Notes under the pieces: generated by a model | Databases searched by the model: none | Told to the model about the DNA's origin: nothing | What the model saw: the letters and a program-made list of their open reading frames with translations, nothing else | Made by a program: the position numbers and the translations under genes | Assembly (NCBI GenBank): GCA_030295235.1 | Contig: AP026141.1 | Span: 682,001 to 706,851 of the forward strand | Source of the DNA: Fistulifera solaris | Taxonomy: Eukaryota | DNA: 24,851 nucleotides | Direction: 5' to 3' | In this document: positions 1 to 24,851 of the stretch, one piece after another | Numbering within the stretch: position 1 is the stretch's first letter | How the letters are laid out: every line of letters starts with the position of its first letter

Positions 1-1429
1 CCTTTTCTTGAATCAGCACAAACTGTTTTGCCTTTCGCACGGTTTGTAACTCTTTCTCCCAAGAGGCAGTACGTGCTAGTGCTGCTTCAGTTGGCGTTCG
101 GAAACATTGACAGGTTTGCATATAGTGAAAAGAGAGTCTGGCTTCTATATCACTTTCCTTGCGTTGCAACTTTTCCTTCAGAATTCGGTATGCTTCTTGC
201 GTACAAAGTGAATAGTAGCCCGAACCATTCGAAGTTTCCCCAAATACGTAACCATCTTTTTCAAATACTCGCCAATCTTGGAAACACGAACGAAGGCCTT
301 TTCTGTGGTGCCAGGAACAAGGTTATTGTCCGGTTTTACCCAACGTATGTTCATGAATTCTTCCAATGGCGTTGATGGCGTCAATTCGTATACAACAGGT
401 ACCGGTTCTTCAGACATAGCTTCGTTTGAAATAGAAATAGAGGTAGACGTTTCGTTTGATTCTCTTTTTCTCTCGGTCAAAGAAACGAACAGCTTGGACT
501 CGGTTTCTCCCGACATCAAATTCATGTTCTTCGCACAGCAAGTCGCATCAACAATGGAATAATAATCAGCCGGCGGCTCCCCGCGATACAAAGCGACATC
601 GCTCGAGTTGATGTACGGCTCCTTATATGATTGTTGCCAAGCTTCGCTGGTTTGTTGAAAAGCCATTTCTAAATTGCTTCCAGAAGATCGGTCATTTAGG
701 GAATCGTCATGATTCAGAAAGGATCCTCGAATACGAATGCAATCAGCTTCATATTTCGCAATTGAATGCAGAATGTGAGTGTGCCACATTAGATCAATGT
801 CGTAGGTCGGGACAATCATGCAGTCACTGCCACGTTCGCGATGAAACGATTTTGATAACAGGAGAAACTTTTGATAGCGTTCGATTGCGTGTTGTAAGAA
901 AGTATCATGCTTGAATTTTCTGTCCGAGACTTGCCACAAAAACTTCTTTTGCTCGTTGACGGATGCTATGAGATAAAAACCGTCCATGTCGCAAACTGAT
1001 TCGGTGATCGGCATATCAGTTAATGCATCTTCTAGGGGCAGAAAGAATGGCTCACCGGGGAAGCGAAGATCCCATTCGACACGCGTTTCTAGCGCTTTGT
1101 TTGTTGTGTCTTCCTTGATTTGAAAGAGAAACGGTGGGCAAGACTCTTCAATCGAATCATCTTGAAACTGTTGCAAGAGATACTTCCGGTAAGGACCTGG
1201 CGCTAAACGATGACAATGAGAGACCCACGAAACATCAGGGAGGAGGGATGAGCATACAGGATGCATTGCTGCGGTGTATATCAGCGAGCAGCGGCAACCA
1301 GCAATTAAGGTAGCGATCGACTGTCAATTGCGTGATCGGTGCCGTCATAACACCCATTCGGTGAAGCTTTTCGAGAAACTCAACATGCTTTCTTGATTCA
1401 ATCAGAAGATTGCAGGAAAAGGGCTCCAT
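1..1429 (-). CDS. Glycine-rich domain-containing protein (GRDP1/DUF1399-like), 3' part runs off the window
   Basis: ORF 1235-1429 (…DRYLNCWLPLL…LIPPP) joins ORF 178-1266 (DVSWVSHCHRLAP…AIERYQKFLLL…IVPTYDIDLMWHTHILH…FLNHDDSLNDRS) through a 1-bp shift at ~1238. These are the two repeated GRDP motifs. A second shift in the T5 run at 257-261 gives KDGYVFGETSNGSGYYSLCTQEAYRIL…, which stays open to position 1. Confidence 0.85.
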
Positions 1430-1630
1430 AATTCATGCAATAAGTTTTCGTCGTAGTGCGCAGGCGTTGCGAGAGGTAGGAAGATAAGCTATTGAATGAA
1501 CGTTCCGCATCAAAGAAAGACAAGATAGAGCTTATAGCTTATTTATTCTTATTATATTTATTTCGCATTTTTTCTTCTTTCGCTTTGCTCGTCTGTCTGG
1601 CACTGCGGTGCGGAGAAGAAGAATCAATCG

Positions 1631-2688
1631 TTGAAAGATCGCCTCGCTCGCATCATCGTCGTATTATTATTGTTTGCTTCTATAGCGAATACCTTCCCTT
1701 CGTTACAAGTACCCATGTTACCTTCTCATTTACAACTATCATCTTCAAAACAACCACATCAAAATCAACATCACCCTCATGAATTCATTCCGACGCATCC
1801 GCTGGGACTGACGGGCGTTATTTGTCAATCTTTCACTTTACAATTGTCGCGGACACCGCGACGGCTGCAATACACACTCTATCGACCGCGACACTTGCTA
1901 TTAGGACCGCCTCCACTGATCGGTATTGCCGGAGGTCCGGGATTACCCTGTCAGTACTTGTCGTCGCTGGTGCATACAATCGAAGATAGAGCCATCGTGT
2001 TATACGATCATGTCGGTTGCGGGCAATCCTTATACAAGGGAACGAACGCTTATGATCGCTACGAAATGATGCTGGATTTAAAAGAACTGATTGATCATTT
2101 AAACTGTGAAGAGTTTCATTTACTAGGGCATTCCTTTGGTGGGTTCTTGGCGTACGAGTATCTCTTACAGCAATCCACTATCTCGCCGCACAAGAAATGC
2201 CATTCGGTCGTACTCGTGAGCACACCTTACGATATGGCGGCGGTGCGAGAACATGTACAGCGACTCAAAGACGAATTAGATGACGATCCGCAAACATTCT
2301 TTCAGCAGCATGAGTGTCGCGTGGTACCGTTGCCTTTACCGTTGCAACAGTCGCTGGATTCCGCAGGATTCTCTTCTTCCATTACCGCCAAAGTACTGGC
2401 CAGAGCACATGGCTTGAACGACGGAGAGAGCGATAATTACGATTCTTCATCTTCTTCTCGCCTTCCGGTATCAACGCCTGCGCTTTTGTTGCAAGGGCAA
2501 CATGATTTTGTACTCAATGTGGCGGACTGGCAGGATGTCTTTCCGGATGCAGAATTCGTCGTTCTCGCTGGTTGTGCACATTATGCCTTTTTGGAAAACG
2601 AAGGAATGTTTGCAGCCGTGGTATCGTCCTTTTGAAACGTCACGAGCCACCACCCAAGCCTTTGGTTTTGCCGAAACCTATAGAATGA
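1631..2688 (+). CDS. Alpha/beta hydrolase, proline iminopeptidase-like
   Basis: Motifs IAGGPG, YDHVGCGQS, nucleophile elbow LLGHSFGG, QGQHDFV (Asp) and GCAHYAFLE (His). Start is uncertain: TTG at 1631, first ATG at 1715. The stop at 2633-2635 is probably an indel; adding one T gives SFLKRHEPPPKPLVLPKPIE* ending at 2688. Confidence 0.8.
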
Positions 2689-3634
2689 ATGGAGAAAGTT
2701 GAGAAGCGACGGGTCACTTTCTTGAGCAGAGATAATCAGGTACCTTTCTCAGATAACGAAAGGTGTTGATGGTAAGTACTCTTTAAAAAGCTCAGGCTTT
2801 GGACTAAAGACGTCAAGACAAAGACATCGGGAACGGCGTTAAAATTCTACCTTGTCGTAAACGCTACGTAAAATCATGTATTGGAGGCAAATTTTTAACG
2901 TCCGTTCCGGCAAAGTCGACGAGAAATATCGGAGAGATCGAGAAAGTAGACTACAGCTAACGACTTTTATCTTCTATCGCAAATCGCAAATCATAAGCAA
3001 ACCTTATCCCTCTCTCAACTCTTAGCGTCGACTATGCTTTGATGAACTGACTGATTATACTTGAGTTGAGAATCTTATTCCCAGAACATCTAGGACTACG
3101 ATTCCCGATCTCGAATCCCGGATGCTACGAAGAGGATAATATATGTGCCCATAAGCACCAAGTTCTCACATGATAATATGTGCAAACACAGATGTCGAAA
3201 GCGTTTAAGACCATTGATTAAGGACTTCTCACTATGTCGCTTACACTAAATTACACGTGGGTCATTTTGAGGCAACACAAAACAACGAAAAAGACCGAAA
3301 TCGTTTATCCCGGCGACATCACGAGTAGTAGCTACTACAGCGAATATCACAGGTCACAAAATTCCAGACATAGTACACAAAACACACAGAACAAAGAGCA
3401 GATTGAGAAACGTTATCGGAGAAAGCCGCAAAGATGGAATAGCCCCTCAAAAAAGTTCGGATCTTTAGCCACTGACCAACTCTCGCCTACTTCGTAGCGT
3501 CAAGTTACCGGTTGTGTCCCCTCTCTTTCTTATTTGCAGTGCTTTTTTGACGGAGCATAATGTTTCAAAAACTTCGTCGGCAATTGCACATTGCACATCC
3601 GATCTTCATAATTTTAGAATCGTTTACCGACACC

Positions 3635-5167: not shown

Positions 5168-8100
5168 ATGGCCTTGGAAGGAGAGGCAAATAACAACAAC
5201 ATCACCGATAATCATAATTTAACACCGCAAGAAAATAGAGCGCGGAAGAAGCGGCCGTGGAGGTCGTGGACGTGGTCGTTTCGGTGGTAGAGGAGGACGA
5301 GGACGTGCGGAGAAAGCGATTGCGGATGAAAACAATCCGCAAGATCGTCCTTCCGGTTCGTCTTTCAACGTTGAAACGGTGAAAAACGATACGAATAATC
5401 ATGATACGGAACAGGTGAAAAGAATGGAAGCGAGAACACTCGCGGGCGAGTAGGAGGCCGCGGAAGAGGCAGGAGTCAAACAAATGACGATAACGAAAAC
5501 ACGCCTGCTTCGAATCACAACAATGAAGATGGCTCCCAGGAAGTCTATCAGGGACGAGGGAGGGGTAGACAAGGAAGAGGACGAGGTCGAGAAGGCCGCT
5601 ACGGTGGTAGAGGAAGAGGACGCGGACGATATGAAGGGAGAGGGCGTGTTGCAAAGGAGGGTAAAGGATCGAATGATACGGATGACGATCAGGGAGCTGA
5701 CAGCAACATCGAAGATAGCGCAACAAATAATGAGATGTCTCACGGGGATCCTCCGACGGCGGTCATCGAAGCAACTTCTGAGCAGCAGCTGAGCTTAGAA
5801 ACGAAAGGCGTAACTTTGATGGAGTCCACCGAATCGAATGTTTCAGTAGCATCGAAACCACAGATTGACACAAAGAATCCGGCTGTCTTACATATAGGTA
5901 ATAAGGCGACGCGAAAGAAAGGCTTTCCCGTTGTTTTAGCTCGTTCGAATGTTGAGCCATCGGATCCATTGCAAGATTTGTCGGAGAAACTGGCTCAAGT
6001 AGCTGTGGAACCATCCACGAAAAAGACCAAAAAAGCCAAGAAAAAGAAGGAAGTTGTCAAGGAAGAAGATACCGATGTAGGCAAAGATGAGCAATCTCCA
6101 GTAGATGTCACCGTTGCACTCCAGAGGCTCCCGGCCCAAGAAGTTAGTATCACTGCGGCTACACAAGTCAAAATGGCACAACAACAGGAAGCCGCAATTG
6201 CATCGGTCGAAACAAAAAGCACGGTTGACAAAAAGAAAAAGAGTAAAAAACAAAATCCAAAGATGCAGGACGCGAAGCAGGCAGCTCGCGCGTTCAACAA
6301 TGCTGTGCGACATGCGGTGGAACGAGGAGATGTACAGGACACTCGTGATTTACTATACGATAAGCGGAATCATCAATTTGCGCTGGATTGCAACGTCCTT
6401 GAGACGGCGATGAAAGCGTTTATTATGGCGGCTCTTCTTGAAGACGCTTTATATTGCCTACGGAATTGCACCTTGCCTGACACATTGAGTGTGATTCAAG
6501 CTGAGCGCATTTTGCAGTGTCTACCACAGAACTTGCGACATTCCAGTGTCTTTTGCGCTGGTGATGTAATCCGCAGCTTGTGTGTAGTTACACAACTCGG
6601 CGACAAACGAACATACTTCCTGCGGATCGTACGGGCCATTGCACTGGAATTTTTGGAAGAAGCCACCACGGCACGTGATCGTATTTGTTCTAGCCCTTGT
6701 GAACGGTTAGTGAGACAAGGGCTCTGTATTGTTAATGCCAAGTTAGAGCGAGGCAAAAGCCGGCCGATCTTGTCGTCAAGCCCGGTGATCAGCTAGGTGT
6801 ATTCATTGCGGACGAAAATCGCGGCTTACAAGCGGGTGACGCTGTCAGTATTTTACCTTACGCAGGCCCTTATCCCTTGAGTGCGGAAAGTTTGGACCGC
6901 GATCTCATCGAAGCTGTTGTTACGTCTACGAACCCCATGAATTTGCGCTTACAAGATCGCACCAACGCGGAACTGTATTCGAGCTTGACGGAACCTGAGA
7001 ATTTGTATAGGATTGATAAATTGGCTAATCGCATGGGATTTAATCGACAGTTGGCCGCTGTAACCAGTTTGTGTGGAAACGATCAAAGGGTGTCGCCTGA
7101 ATTGGTACAGGCGGTCACCGCGATGGACGCAAATTTTATGACGCCCCGTGAAGCCACTCATTTGGGGCGTCTCACGTCGACAGCTGCGTTATGTGCTACC
7201 GCTGTTGGCGACGACGACCAAGACAGTTTGAGAGCTGTGTCCCGACTTGCTTTGGAGAAGTTTAACTCTCTTGAAGGTCTCAACGCAAGTCAGCAGCTAG
7301 CTGTTGAAGGTGCGGTGACTAATAGATTAACGCTAGTTCAGGGGCCTCCAGGTACGTGGGCTTATTGAGACGTTATTGAGATGTTCTGTTGTACCATGGT
7401 TTTAACGTATAAGTGGTACAGGTACCGGAAAGACCGCTGTTGCGATTCGTATCTTGCAGCATTGGGCGAAGATGGACAGTGATGTTCCAATCTTGGCAAC
7501 ATCAGACTCCAACATTGCCGTGGACAATCTTGTCGAAGGATGTGCGAATGTTGGATTAAGAGTAATCCGCATTGGAAGACCTGAAGCAATCAGACCGGAG
7601 CTATTGAAATACTGCATCGACAGAGAAAAGCAGGCCAACTCGGTCACCTTTACAAAGAACGATCGAAACAACTTCGACAAGCTCAAGTCATCTGTTGCAC
7701 ATGCATCGGGAGTGGTAGTGAATGGTTAGATGCTATTGGTGTTTGCCCTCGAGTTCTTGTCGATGAAGCAACACAGGCTACTGAGCCAGCTGTGCTGGTT
7801 CCGCTGATGCGAGGCTGCAAGCAGCTCGTTTTAGTCGGTGATCATTGCCAATTGCCACCAACTGTACTTTCAACACAAGCCGCCGAAGAGGGTCACGGCG
7901 TGCCTCTTTTCTCTCGTATGGTGGCTTGTGGGGTTCCTCCTTATATGTTGGATACGCAATATCGAATGCATCCGGCGATATCACAATTTCCGAGTGACTT
8001 GTTTTATGGAGGGCTTTTGCAAAATGGTGTAAGCGCACCGGAACGGCGTCCTCTCGCTGGATTTCCGTGGCCAGTTCCTGAATTCCCAGTTGCGTTCATG

Positions 8101-8922
8101 CCGATTTATGGGCAGGAACTTGATGATGGTGTTAGCAAATACAATGTAGAAGAAGCACAAGCCGCTGTTCAGGCCGTGCAGATGCTCCTTCAAGGTGGAC
8201 AATGTACCGCCGCTGACATCGCGGTTGTGACACCGTATGCAGCGCAAGCGAAATTCATTCGACGTCTGATTCGTCAATCGATTGCCGAATTCCTTGAAGT
8301 ATCTTCGGTGGATGGCTTTCAAGGCCGTGAAAAACAAGCTGTTGTCTTTTCCGCCGTGCGCAGCAATAATTACGGAGGTGTCGGCTTTACTTCGGACTGG
8401 CGGCGTGTCAATGTTTCTTTTACGCGAGCGCGACGTGCGCTGATTGTTCTTGGCAATGATGTTTGTCTTCGACGAGGAGACCCAGAAACATGGGCGTTGT
8501 GGTTGGCCTGGGCCGACGCAGCAGGCATCAACATGGACCGCCCAGGCCAACCTCGAGGTCGATATGATGCGGAGCAGCTACGCCGCGTTCGAGGTGGTAC
8601 AACGGCTGCCGAACTATTGAAGGACGTCTTAAATCGACAACGAGAGCAAATACAGTCGCAGTTGTTTCATCAAGAACGGGCGGTTCGCAATGCGCAGGGA
8701 CAAATCATGGCGATGGAGGAAGAAAAGGCTCCAGAAGAGGCTCAATTGACAATGGAAGAAGAGGTCGCTTTAATGGAAAACACGGATGGCAATTGGGATG
8801 ACTCGGATGATGAAGCACCGCCAATGCCTCGAAACTTTTCTAAAAGTACGCTGACGAGCAACAGCTCGATTTCCCGAAGCAACACCCGCAGTAGCACACC
8901 GACAGATGCCTGGGATTTGTAA
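5168..8922 (+). CDS. UPF1/NAM7/SEN1-like superfamily 1 helicase with N-terminal RG/RGG-rich region
   Basis: Q-motif LNASQQLAV. Walker A QGPPG|TGKT is split by intron 7352-7421. Other motifs: ATSDSNIAVDNL, VLVDEATQATEP, LVGDHCQLPPTV, QYRMHP, VVTPYAAQ, SSVDGFQGREK, RRVNVSFTRAR. ORF pieces from 5168, 5735-6796, 6877-7351, 7422-~7700 and 7792-8922 are joined by several 1-bp shifts. No UPF1 Cys/His domain is visible, so no gene symbol is given. Confidence 0.9.
7352..7421 (+). other. Spliceosomal intron (70 nt) inside the Walker A motif
   Basis: GTACGT…GTACAG. Removing it yields CCT CCA G|GT ACC GGA AAG ACC = PPGTGKT. Confidence 0.9.
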
Positions 8923-21360: not shown

Positions 21361-22623
21361 TTACAAAAAGGCCAAGACGCCACTCGTACTCAAACACCAC
21401 GACAATAGCAGCGTCATGGGTACCACGGATGCGACATACAAGCCGGTCAATAGCTTAGCCATTCCCTGTGCTGGCAAACCGGCTAACTGCAGCAAGACAA
21501 CCGCGTTTTGAGCGGGTGGCGTGCAACCCTGTAACAGCAAAATAAAATGAAAGATGGCAGATCGGGCGCTATGTTCTCCCAGCAAGCCAGCACCAATTAG
21601 TAAGCGACACATTGTATGTGCCAGCAAGGGCATTACCATAAAGCGAGTCGCAAATAGTGTGACGAACGGCCAAGGCGAAGATTTTTTGGATGATATAGCC
21701 GTAGATTGTTCCGAATCATCCTGAGGTAAAACTAAACTGCCAGCGAGAACTAACATTACAGCAGGAAGATAGGCTGTGCCAAGCGTTTGGCAAGCGCCGG
21801 TCACTGGTTGCAAAACGCCCCCGAAGAACAAATTTCCGAGTCTCGGCACACTTCCCAGCAACATCCCGATGAGACTACCAATGACGGGCGGGCTCAGAAA
21901 TTGTTTCAATCCAGAAACTACTTTTTTGAAGCGGGGAATCCGAGGCGCCATTTACCGTGTTGCTGCTAGGCCCCGACAAGATAATTTTCCCAAAAGTCCA
22001 GAAAAGAGGCGACCAAGCAAGCAAGTAAAATGATACCGCAGCTGCAGCCATACCTGCAAGAGGACTTCCTTCTAAAAGAGCCGCCGAGAAGATGAGTGGC
22101 AAAGGGCCTGCATTCGCAAATGTAGTGCACATTTGCACATGTCGACGCGTTGTATCGTCACGAAAAAAGCGCGAAGTTACCATAGCAAGTGTAGCTCCAA
22201 TAGCAATTTGCACAATGCCCGCAATCGGCATAATCCAAAGCGACGGTTTCTGTGCATCGGAAACGCTGCGAAGCGTTCGCGCGACACTGACAAACAGAAA
22301 TGTCGGTTGGAAGATGTGGTACGTCAGCTTTGAAAGAGCTTTGACCGCATTTTGTCGAGAATGTTTCGTTTCGCCAACATTCCGCCGATGCCAAGCGCAC
22401 TAAGCAATTGCGCTGTAGCCGAAAGACTTGCTTTAACCACAACTGGGTTTAAAGCAGCACTTAATGTTAACGCAGGGCGAGCATTGACGACCCTAGCTGA
22501 AATGAATTTCTTGTCGTAGAGAGTTCCTCGACTTCTTTTTTCAATTCGCCTATGCAACGTCGGCGCGGTAAAAGCTTTAGCAAAACAAAAGCATCCGAGC
22601 AAAATAATTAACCGAGAACGCAT
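21361..22623 (-). CDS. Auxin efflux carrier / PIN-LIKES (Mem_trans) family transporter with bipartite plastid-type presequence, frameshifted
   Basis: MRSRLIILLGCFCFAKA-FTAP, followed by hydrophobic pieces with HIFQPTFLF, CTTFANAGPLPLIF, YLLAWSPLFWTFG, LSPPVIGSLIG, AYLPAVMLVLAGSL, RFMVMPL and LLQGCTPPAQN. Spread over ORFs 22324-22716, 21875-22231 and 21361-21951. Confidence 0.8.
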
Positions 22624-22659
22624 CTTCAGGAATAAAGAACAGCAAGAATGATGAACTAC

Positions 22660-22680
22660 TGATTGATTGATTGATTGATT
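22660..22680. repeat. (TGAT)5 microsatellite
   Basis: TGATTGATTGATTGATTGATT, just upstream of the transporter start codon. Confidence 0.9.
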
Positions 22681-22873
22681 AATGGTTCCTGTCGATCCGA
22701 TTTTACAATAAATCATCGCGTGTCGCGTGTCGCGACGACGCGATGCGACGACTCAAGGGGAAATCACTGGGGGACTCGCTTCTGCAGTCCCGCGATGATT
22801 GTACACTTTACATGATACACAGCGATGGCAAAATTTTGACCGCTTATTATCTAAACCGACCGAGTGTCGCAAA

Positions 22874-22887
22874 GGGTTAGGGTTAGG
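22874..22887 (+). repeat. Short interstitial telomeric tract GGGTTAGGGTTAGG
   Basis: 14 nt of perfect telomere repeat in the same orientation as the terminal array, 1.2 kb inside it. Confidence 0.85.
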
Positions 22888-22960
22888 AATTTGGAAATTG
22901 GGATATGGAACATGGAAATTGGAAAAGGGGCGTGAGAAGTAGGTAAATAGGAAGTAGCAA

Positions 22961-23587
22961 TCAGTAATAAGGAAAGGAGGGAGGTGACAATAATGGAACT
23001 AAGTATTGAAAGAAAATGTCATGGAAAGTATCAAGTCTATTTTGCGCAACAGAGACAACTGCAGTTTTGGGGCGGGGTTTGTTTGGGTCCATTTCAGCGA
23101 CCTTAATCAAGGTCGTACCAACATGAACAGTCTCCTCTCTGTAGAATTGCTGAGTATGATCATACATCTTTGTTGTAGTTACGTGGATGACAGAAGAGTC
23201 ATTTTGAAATGCGGTACCTTGGAGTGCGTCCAAAGCGAGTTTCACGCAATTTTCAATATCGGGGCGTGTGTCACAAATTTTGGGGCATTCGCTTTTAACG
23301 GCCAATCTTTTCCCGCTGGTCCGACAATGAAATGATGTTTTGGACGTGGGAAGTAGAATTTGACAGTAATTGAACACGGGTTCCCGTTGCAGCGAAAAAT
23401 ACCAGTGGGGGCTTGCTGCAATGCCTCTTGAAACGCATCCCGAAATGAGTTCTGGTTTGCTTTGCTTGGACTGAACATTTTGACCTTTCCGCTTGCCTTG
23501 GTTGTTGTTGCAAAATTACGGTACTGTGGTCTTGGCTTCCCAGAAATCTTGCAGGTAAAAAGAAGCGAAGGTGGTCGGTGAATTCAT
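22961..23587 (-). CDS. rusA: RusA-family endodeoxyribonuclease (Holliday junction resolvase), with homopolymer frameshifts
   Basis: Stitched from ATG 23587: MNSPTTFASF/TCKISGKPRPQYRNF…KMFSPSKANQNSFRDAFQEAL…PCSITVKFYFPRPKHHF…LKANAPKFVTHA/PDIENCVKLALDALQGTAFQNDSSVIHVTTTKMY…GTTLIKV. This matches the RusA pattern G.P.P..R…F.F.RP…PD.DN..K..LDAL.G….D..V…..K.Y. Shifts occur at the A5 run (~23557-23561) and G4 run (23261-23264). The true stop is 22961 or, with one more shift, 23037. Confidence 0.85.
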
Positions 23588-23607
23588 ACTTAGTCGTGGA
23601 ATTTGTG

Positions 23608-24113
23608 TCAAAGCAGTACTCTCCTGGTGCAACTGCCGTGTGTTTCGCACTGGAGCTCAGCCTCAGGAACGGTCCACTCTGGAATGTAAGCGCCGATTTC
23701 GATGCTGGAAAAATGACCACCTCCAGCACGCTTAAGAGTGGCGTGATCCTCCCAGAAAGATGGGTTAGCAATTTGTTACCGTGCTCATCGTAATAAAATT
23801 CCGTGCCGTTAGTGCGATTCAACATGGATAGCTTTTGTCTGTTGCCATGTGCGGAATGAACAAGAAGTTGGCTTTGTAACTCGTTGCAAATGCGCGTGAA
23901 TTGTTTCTGGTCTCGTCGCTGAGGGGCAATGTTACCAGCATGGGAGAGGCGATGGATGCCGATGTTAGCAAGAGCATCAAAAAGCAGGAGAGCCACAACG
24001 TTGGAGAAGAGGTCTTTGATTGTTGTCGCGAGCGGATGCAACGTTCATTCCAATGCAAAGCGAGTTCATCCAAAGCCGTCTCTGCGTACGCATTAGAAAA
24101 CTGCTGAATATCC
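23608..24113 (-). pseudogene. 5'-truncated unknown ORF interrupted by the telomere
   Basis: The frame is open from the telomere junction (PDIQQFSNAYAETALDELALHWNE…). It continues in the 23295-24041 frame (LHPLATTIKDLFSNVVALLLFDALAN…NGTEFYYDEHGNK) and plausibly into IANPSFWEDHATLKRAGGGHFSSIEIGAYIPEW…RRVLL* (stop 23608-23610). No family recognised. Confidence 0.45.
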
Positions 24114-24851
24114 GGGCTAGGGTTAGGGTTATGGGTTAGGGTTAGGGTTAGGGTTAGGGTTAGGGTTAGGGTTAGGGTTAGGGTTAGGGTTAGGGTTAGG
24201 GTTAGGGTTAGGGTTAGGGTTAGGGTTAGGGTTAGGGTTAGGGTTAGGGTTAGGGTTAGGGTTAGGGTTAGGGTTAGGGTTAGGGTTAGGGTTAGGGTTA
24301 GGGTTAGGGTTAGGGTTAGGGTTAGGGTTAGGGTTAGGGTTAGGGTTAGGGTTAGGGTTAGGGTTAGGGTTAGGGTTAGGGTTAGGGTTAGGGTTAGGGT
24401 TAGGGTTAGGGTTAGGGTTAGGGTTAGGGTTAGGGTTGGGGTTGGGGTTAGGGTTAGGGTTAGGGTTAGGGTTAGGGTTAGGGTTAGGGTTAGGGTTGGG
24501 GTTGAGGGTTGGGGTTGGGGTTGAGGGTTAGGGTTAGGGTTAGGGTTAGGGTTAGGGTTAGGGTTAGGGTTAGGGTTAGGGTTAGGGTTAGGGTTAGGGT
24601 TAGGGTTAGGGTTAGGGTTAGGGTTAGGGTTAGGGTTAGGGTTAGGGTTAGGGTTAGGGTTAGGGTTAGGGGTTAGGGTTAGGGTTAGGGTTAGGGTTGG
24701 GGTTGGGGTTAGGGTTAGGGTTAGGGTTAGAGGTTAGGGTTAGGGTTAGGGTTAGGGTTAGGGTTAGGGTTAGGGTTAGGGTTAGGGTTGGGGTTAGGGT
24801 TGAGGGTTAGGGTTAGGAGTTAGGAGTTAGGGTTAGGGTTAGGGTTAGGAG
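24114..24851 (+). repeat. Telomere, (TTAGGG)n
   Basis: About 740 bp of tandem TTAGGG reaching the end of the window, with the G-rich strand running 5'->3' toward the end. Variant units at the junction (GGGCTA, TTATGGG) and distally (TTGGGG, TTGAGGG, TTAGGAG). Confidence 0.99.

Follow-up and report, generated by a model that had tools for sequence, protein, structure and literature searches.

In this work we ask what a RusA-type Holliday-junction resolvase is doing at the extreme end of a Fistulifera solaris contig. The window, that is the whole stretch of 24,851 nt analysed, is the right end of contig C38 of the assembly (G000; 62 contigs and 51.7 Mb as searched), in which homeologous gene pairs are about 80-87% alike. 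The first-pass annotation had located a resolvase gene at 22961..23587 and read it as a horizontally acquired nuclease acting at chromosome ends. Judged from its sequence, the window RusA is the last, 3'-most gene of a mobile unit, which consists of a first gene (ORF1), RusA, a pyrimidine-rich tail and a 23-nt tag ending in CCCTAA. The features of the window copy are the following:

22873..22902, minus strand: fixed 3' end of the unit, the 23-nt tag plus 10 nt of telomere pattern, joined on to host DNA
22903..23036, minus strand: 3' untranslated stretch, pyrimidine-rich and unstructured (MFE -2.6 kcal/mol, z +1.2), with degenerate heptamer repeats
23037..23651, minus strand: RusA resolvase remnant, about 204 of about 220 codons, start codon gone, CxCxxC C-terminal tail
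23252-23254, minus strand: Glu codon at the site of the second catalytic Asp of the window RusA
23630..23657, no strand: junction of an internal deletion of about 580 bp, which removed the 3' part of ORF1, the spacer and the RusA start
23650..24117, minus strand: fragment from the middle of ORF1 (corresponding to about residues 159-314 of P0003, a relative of 433 aa), a predicted OB-fold single-stranded DNA-binding protein, cut on its 5' side by the telomere
24114..24849, plus strand: terminal (TTAGGG)n array of 121 copies, the distal end of the contig, capping the 5'-truncated unit

The window copy and the RusA family

The resolvase itself is real: Pfam RusA matches were obtained in two minus-strand frames, at 22964-23515 (E 4.4e-9, over the cut-off) and 23245-23583 (E 0.006), and a Cys-containing tail lies in a third, so that the gene is indeed spread across three frames, with the motif D-I-E-N-C-V-K..DAL..ND as first read. 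All three parts, tail included, stand in a single frame in P0001, an intact metagenome protein of 146 aa, which equals the N-half frame of the window at 72/73 residues and carries Asp at the disputed site. Contigs from two short-read runs of different studies (X1, which may be the assembly's own source sample and would then not be strain-independent, and X2) span 22882-24109 with 14 gaps each relative to the window, and the window bases 23072, 23074, 23561 and 23565 are absent from both. Nine deletions are listed and the contigs are 4 bases shorter, hence the 5 unlisted gaps are insertions, one of which we infer to be the break near 23260. The frameshifts are accordingly attributed to assembly errors: extra bases are missing from X1 and X2 at two of the breaks, and P0001 is near-identical and intact. 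Either introns or the same indel errors also break up the reading frames of two host genes of the window, at 21361-22752 and 5405-8922 (a Mem_trans transporter and a helicase-like gene).

For the Asp-to-Glu change a read error had been named as one possibility, and there this explanation fails, since the Glu codon is common to the window and X1. At position 23252 X1 has Glu like the window and X2 has Asp; the agreement with X1 makes Glu a real substitution, and it is private to the window copy, because Asp occupies the D72 site in 12 of the 13 readable genomic copies (17 copies examined). Nor does a complete RusA start from the ATG at 23587, which is out of frame: in intact relatives, 214-256 aa long, the protein extends further upstream in a different frame, which matches the window up to 23651. 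Beyond this point window homology jumps into ORF1, through the loss of about 580 bp that the C1, C2 and C19 copies contain, and single X1 and X2 contigs span this deletion without a joint. With neither start codon nor promoter side of its own, and with an altered active site (Glu at the D72 site), the window copy is probably a dead pseudogene, 5'-truncated, its start codon deleted and a catalytic Asp replaced. It is also not a lone gene: the same DNA search gives 52 matches in the assembly, and the other long copies are 68-76% identical to it.

RusA resolvases are dimers which cleave four-way junctions symmetrically and depend on Mg. Family identity was assessed on an intact member, P0131, which matches Pfam PF05866 at E 2.7e-18, over the curated cut-off. 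Its structure model (pLDDT 79) returned RusA at all of Foldseek ranks 1 to 6 (E 0.0025-0.0098), and in the VIA fold match the E. coli enzyme ranked top (Z 8.6, rmsd 3.0 over 111 residues; next row Z 6.0); a PDB sequence search with the RusA profile gave no real match, RusA being found there by the fold search. According to the accessible part of PMC1636454, the critical residues of E. coli RusA are D70, D72, K76 and D90/91. Across 21 aligned family rows, the D, D, N, K and later D are invariant and the three Cys of the tail are present in at least 90%; the C-terminal Cys tail, noticed at first in the window alone, is therefore a conserved family trait, and may bind metal through CxCxxC. The absence of an intron and of a targeting peptide, also claimed at first, holds. 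The telomeric RusA thus shares with E. coli RusA (PF05866; PDB 1Q8R, 2H8C, 2H8E) the Pfam family, the fold and the catalytic residues, and differs from it in being about 220 aa long, with a basic N-terminal extension and the CxCxxC C-terminal tail, in being eukaryotic and carried on a telomeric unit, and in having no arginine-rich loop of the R66-R69 type before D70 (a Pro precedes the first Asp, with no Arg run).

Comparison of codons from well-matching stretches only, a choice which biases dN down, gave dN/dS of 0.08-0.13 between the window copy and four other copies, 0.15 for C1-C2 and C5-C37, and 0.07 for C2-C16, dS being saturated in two pairs. The ratio ranged from 0.19 to 1.37 in the seven closest pairs, which differ by few changes and are dominated by errors. 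The values of about 0.1 between subfamilies (0.07-0.15 where dS is finite) indicate purifying selection on the RusA family.

No RusA fused to a longer protein was found in 8000 candidates of 449-2000 aa. The assembly also holds an intact, internal, homeologous RusA pair with canonical motif (L031:1201-1998, contig C34; L032:1201-2016, contig C35), whose N-terminal extension resembles an organelle-targeting presequence and which has no DNA similarity to the telomeric copies. At another locus (L125:403-1116 and 1189-3564) the neighbour faced by a eukaryote-like RusA is a gene of 791 aa that has an NDC10_II domain, of the Crypton-like tyrosine recombinase type. Algal mobile elements of at least two kinds may carry RusA.

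Organization of the telomeric unit

All copies have one common 3' end, the 23-nt tag running into CCCTAA. A search of the assembly for the tag, allowing up to one mismatch, gave 61 matches, against 0 for the reversed control: all 61 are polarised relative to the nearest contig end, 60 lie within 11 kb of it, and 38 ends are occupied. The RusA profile matches 22 of the 47 end stretches fetched, some of which are duplicate ends; these stretches contain 67 tagged units with a single common 3' end, 30-3288 bp long (median 232), the length being measured as far as similarity to any of five reference units extends. The units are variably 5'-truncated and stacked head-to-tail with subfamilies mixed, and most RusA-unit copies are fragments with the fixed 3' end and no start. 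After the tag, telomere pattern extends for 1-22 nt (median 7) at 60 junctions; for 22 of these a donor could be identified, with microhomology of 0-4 nt. On the proximal side of the tag, most flanks bear no relation from one end to another. RusA is very probably the cargo of a telomere-attaching mobile unit. The single, horizontally acquired host nuclease proposed at first is at odds with a gene carried by a polarised, 5'-truncated, multi-copy telomeric unit, whose window copy has lost its start codon and a catalytic Asp.

At the homeologous chromosome end (C39 right end, L285:2941-2968) there is no RusA, and a degenerate tag relic only is found, about 230 bp inside the telomere. Just inside the tag of the window lies a short dispersed repeat (22754-22870), which has high contig depth, is matched 11 more times at interior positions, and is possibly a MITE or SINE end.

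Other arrangements occur besides simple tagged units. The extreme 3' end of the unit is duplicated in tandem, over 150 bp, at C15 and C25. Tag-less pieces exist, namely a distal ORF1 fragment at C1/C56 and the C7 left copy; the former (L043:7651-8489 at the C1 right end, and its C56 copy) is internal to ORF1, and is attached via 5-6 telomere repeats outside a long unit. Whole arrays and subtelomeres are common to several ends as blocks (C1/C56/C7), which indicates that DNA-level copying also happens. Outside tagged units, kilobases of low-complexity satellite and several Copia-type elements were observed (L274, L275, L252, L253, L051 and L263), and at the right end of C33 such sequence amounts to as much as 30 kb.

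No reverse transcriptase (RT) was found in the longest unit (3.3 kb) or in distal zones, by scans which are weak and also missed the frameshifted RT of the telomeric family B, described below; Pfam scans of 88 element frames and of 142 frames mostly from distal zones gave RusA and Copia domains only. An RVT_1 search of the assembly listed 28 matches, and the 13 examined are, we assume from their motifs, Gypsy-like, CRE-like or TERT-like. Neither these 13 of the 28 loci nor the distal zones yielded a Penelope-clade RT, in scans that miss frameshifted RTs. A pair of 916-917-aa frames with an RVT_1 match (L087 and L088, contigs C31 and C30) is presumably, by motif, telomerase reverse transcriptase. 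The true 5' end of the unit may lie outside the assembly. The 3' end is unstructured, with no hammerhead next to the 3' repeat: Rfam gave 0 matches in 7 loci, and the core motif occurs in 1 of 67 tags, where it spans a junction on the other strand. The unit contains no poly(A).

Family B, located at the C31 left end (L281:263-3004) and also on C2, C46, C6, C10, C39 and C33, is 5'-truncated and telomere-specific; we take it, by motif, to be a CRE-type non-LTR element with an RT and a restriction-like endonuclease. Family B and the RusA unit are interleaved in mixed head-to-tail arrays. The 3' terminus of family B is CCCTAA, with telomere pattern over 10-27 nt, and the 3' sequence common to the two is only CCCTAA and a general pyrimidine richness. 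Family C, at the ends of C15, C25, C9, C30, C50 and C27 (L264, L265, L256, L272, L270, L257), has the same 23-nt tag on an unrelated, AT-rich, decayed body, which holds a possible decayed antisense ORF; at C18, C33 and C41, ORF1 pieces are preceded on their upstream side by a stretch 73% related to it.

ORF1, relatives and origin

ORF1, a gene of about 430 aa directly upstream of RusA, has 123 matches among cluster representatives, a few of them repetitive and false. No convincing Pfam family was found in 42 scanned, and the ESM Atlas gave no match at 0.9. With the structure model (pLDDT 83.8), VIA returned RPA70 (Z 7.7) and Pot1 and Teb1 (7.2), below the caution level of 8 of the tool, nearly all 50 rows being OB-domain proteins; the best Foldseek rows likewise belong to OB proteins, none with an E-value better than 0.027. 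The model thus suggests that ORF1 is likely an OB-fold, RPA/POT1-like protein, which would bind single-stranded DNA. In the longest copies a stretch of about 650 bp upstream of ORF1 may contain a further broken ORF (L047:2132-2900, L043:6900-7600); the frame upstream of ORF1 has no Pfam match and no usable ESM Atlas match.

Of 80 metagenome loci compared, 7 are close, with RusA 41-45% identical over the whole query. In 6 of the 7, ORF1 was detected by HMM directly upstream of RusA, other sequence preceding the seventh. The tag is present, with 0, 1 and 5 mismatches, in all 3 close loci extending more than 260 nt past the stop (the remaining four end sooner); when up to 3 mismatches are allowed, none of the 143 control loci has it. 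Gene order and 3' tag are thus found again in metagenome relatives at about 42% RusA identity.

A quick tree was built on 90 rows of 158, after removal of near-copies, P-numbered rows being labelled by similarity. The 14 family rows form one clade (SH-aLRT 96), which joins the internal RusA of the assembly (L031) and L125 at a node that is not starred (SH-aLRT 94). In this quick tree the phage origin implied at first is not borne out, the clade joining the internal RusA and not the phage sequences sampled; an origin of the family inside algae is suggested, and a fresh transfer from phage is not supported. A viral origin was considered and rejected: no ORF1 relative and no tag were found in viral contigs, and the RusAs of viruses match only distantly and for the most part partially. 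A single match to the tag in prokaryote genomes was discarded as due to chance, lying in low-complexity repeats with neither RusA nor ORF1.

Known systems and possible modes of spread

Telomere-attaching elements are known in rotifers, fungi, flies and one diatom. Among telomeric units, Drosophila HeT-A has no RT and encodes a protein of its own, and yeast Y' elements encode a DNA-processing enzyme and are spread by recombination; the RusA unit differs from these in having no Gag-like or helicase gene and no poly(A), in keeping telomerase-type repeats and in its variable 5' ends. A closer likeness is found with endonuclease-deficient Penelope-like elements (Athena, Coprina, Terminons), for which the accessible parts of PMC6431247 and PMC8557442 describe a fixed 3' end, a short telomere seed, polarity and graded 5' loss. 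Coprina has been reported from the diatom Phaeodactylum. Like these elements, as far as the descriptions go, the RusA unit has a short reverse-complement telomere stretch at its 3' end, 5' truncation capped by telomere repeats, head-to-tail arrays and accessory genes; unlike them, it has no hammerhead, and no Penelope-type RT was found by scans which miss frameshifted RTs. Neither RusA nor an OB-fold protein is listed in the Terminon cargo in the accessible part of the review PMC6431247, where the word 'resolvase' is absent. The MoTeRs of Magnaporthe oryzae, in the part of bioRxiv 10.1101/845669 available, have 5' ends towards the chromosome tip, with RT-encoding and RT-less elements in mixed head-to-tail arrays. 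The RusA unit has the same orientation, and is interleaved with family B (CRE-type RT by motif) as MoTeR2 is with MoTeR1. MoTeR2, according to the same part, has both termini in common with MoTeR1 and no known coding function, whereas the RusA unit, which encodes two conserved proteins, shares nothing but CCCTAA with family B. The anatomy is thus like that of Penelope-like elements and of MoTeR2-type partners, yet the unit is filed as neither, having no hammerhead and no terminus shared with family B. Literature on RusA in connection with telomeres, retrotransposons or diatoms, and on diatom telomeric elements, contained nothing on the RusA unit, most subscription papers being outside this scope; in the literature covered, in part as excerpts, a resolvase and a single-stranded DNA-binding protein as cargo of a telomere-attaching element are new.

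We lean towards RNA-templated, telomere-primed addition of the unit to chromosome ends, a mechanism which we hold, as a whole, to be moderately probable on account of the fixed 3' end, the short telomere seed, the graded 5' loss and a polarity as in Terminons and MoTeRs. A transcript ending in C-strand telomere sequence would pair with the G-rich 3' terminus of a chromosome end almost devoid of telomere, and an RT, acting in trans or encoded in a 5' part absent from the ends examined, would extend the chromosome outwards. Extension would usually stop early, telomerase or the next unit providing the cap. ORF1 would bind the single-stranded end or the cDNA, and RusA would most plausibly resolve the unit's own branched intermediate, whether the template is RNA or DNA; cutting of integration intermediates, one of the roles first suggested, is most likely that of the intact family. 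Counting against an RNA template are the failure of the scans to find an RT or a hammerhead in the unit, the lack of poly(A) and of a 3' end common with family B, the tag-less pieces, the copying of blocks, and the fact that both proteins are of DNA-recombination types.

Several of these points would fit a DNA-templated homing to telomeres with no RNA step, a reading which we consider doubtful, though it is the main rival. An eroded end would invade another chromosome at the telomere-like tag, with the OB-fold protein on the G-rich strand of the tag; DNA synthesis would proceed outwards, and RusA would resolve the D-loop or four-way junction. The cargo, a predicted single-stranded DNA binder plus a junction resolvase, agrees with such a route, as do the RT and ribozyme not found and the arrays and subtelomeres copied between ends as blocks; D-loop extension of telomeric arrays has been described for MoTeRs, in the available part of bioRxiv 10.1101/845669. 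E. coli RusA cuts 5' of CC (PMC1636454, accessible part), and telomere C-strands would offer CC sites in every repeat. However, the junction homology of about one telomere repeat is short for strand invasion, and the majority of units are short 3' fragments, independent of one another and belonging to different subfamilies, in direct stacks, which is the usual signature of primed reverse transcription. In a stronger form of the DNA route, unlikely in our judgement, the unit would represent an algal class of telomere-homing elements with no polymerase, RT or transposase, carrying only an OB protein and a phage-type resolvase and invading DNA at the tag. If true, this would be a selfish, self-encoded recombination route of telomere extension beside telomerase, widespread in algae.

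It is quite improbable that a horizontally acquired nuclease serving the host at t-loops or stalled forks was kept in subtelomeres and multiplied by their ordinary duplication: the purifying selection and intact active sites of the family are compatible with this, and basic N-terminal extensions with no signal peptide would fit a nuclear protein, but fragmentary copies with a fixed 3' end and no start, tag-proximal flanks mostly unrelated between ends, and a homeologous end with a tag relic and no RusA all speak against it, and for the disabled window copy it is already largely refuted. An assembly artefact, with long reads collapsed or chimeric at contig ends, as might be suggested by the numerous indel errors in this region, where each of the two contig sets shows 14 gaps, is scarcely credible, being refuted by the single contigs from two studies that span the whole unit with the same deletion, and disfavoured by the 68-76% identity of the window copy to other long copies and by the recurrence of the architecture in metagenomes.

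The RNA-templated reading and its DNA-templated rival concern a unit of some breadth: no fewer than 38 contig ends carry the tag, relatives whose proteins are about 42% identical keep both the gene pair and the 3' tag, and more than 100 ORF1 relatives are without annotation. The unit offers a testable handle on how telomere-primed insertions are finished, in particular on second-strand formation and junction resolution, and, if no RNA step exists, it would represent a new mode of spread.
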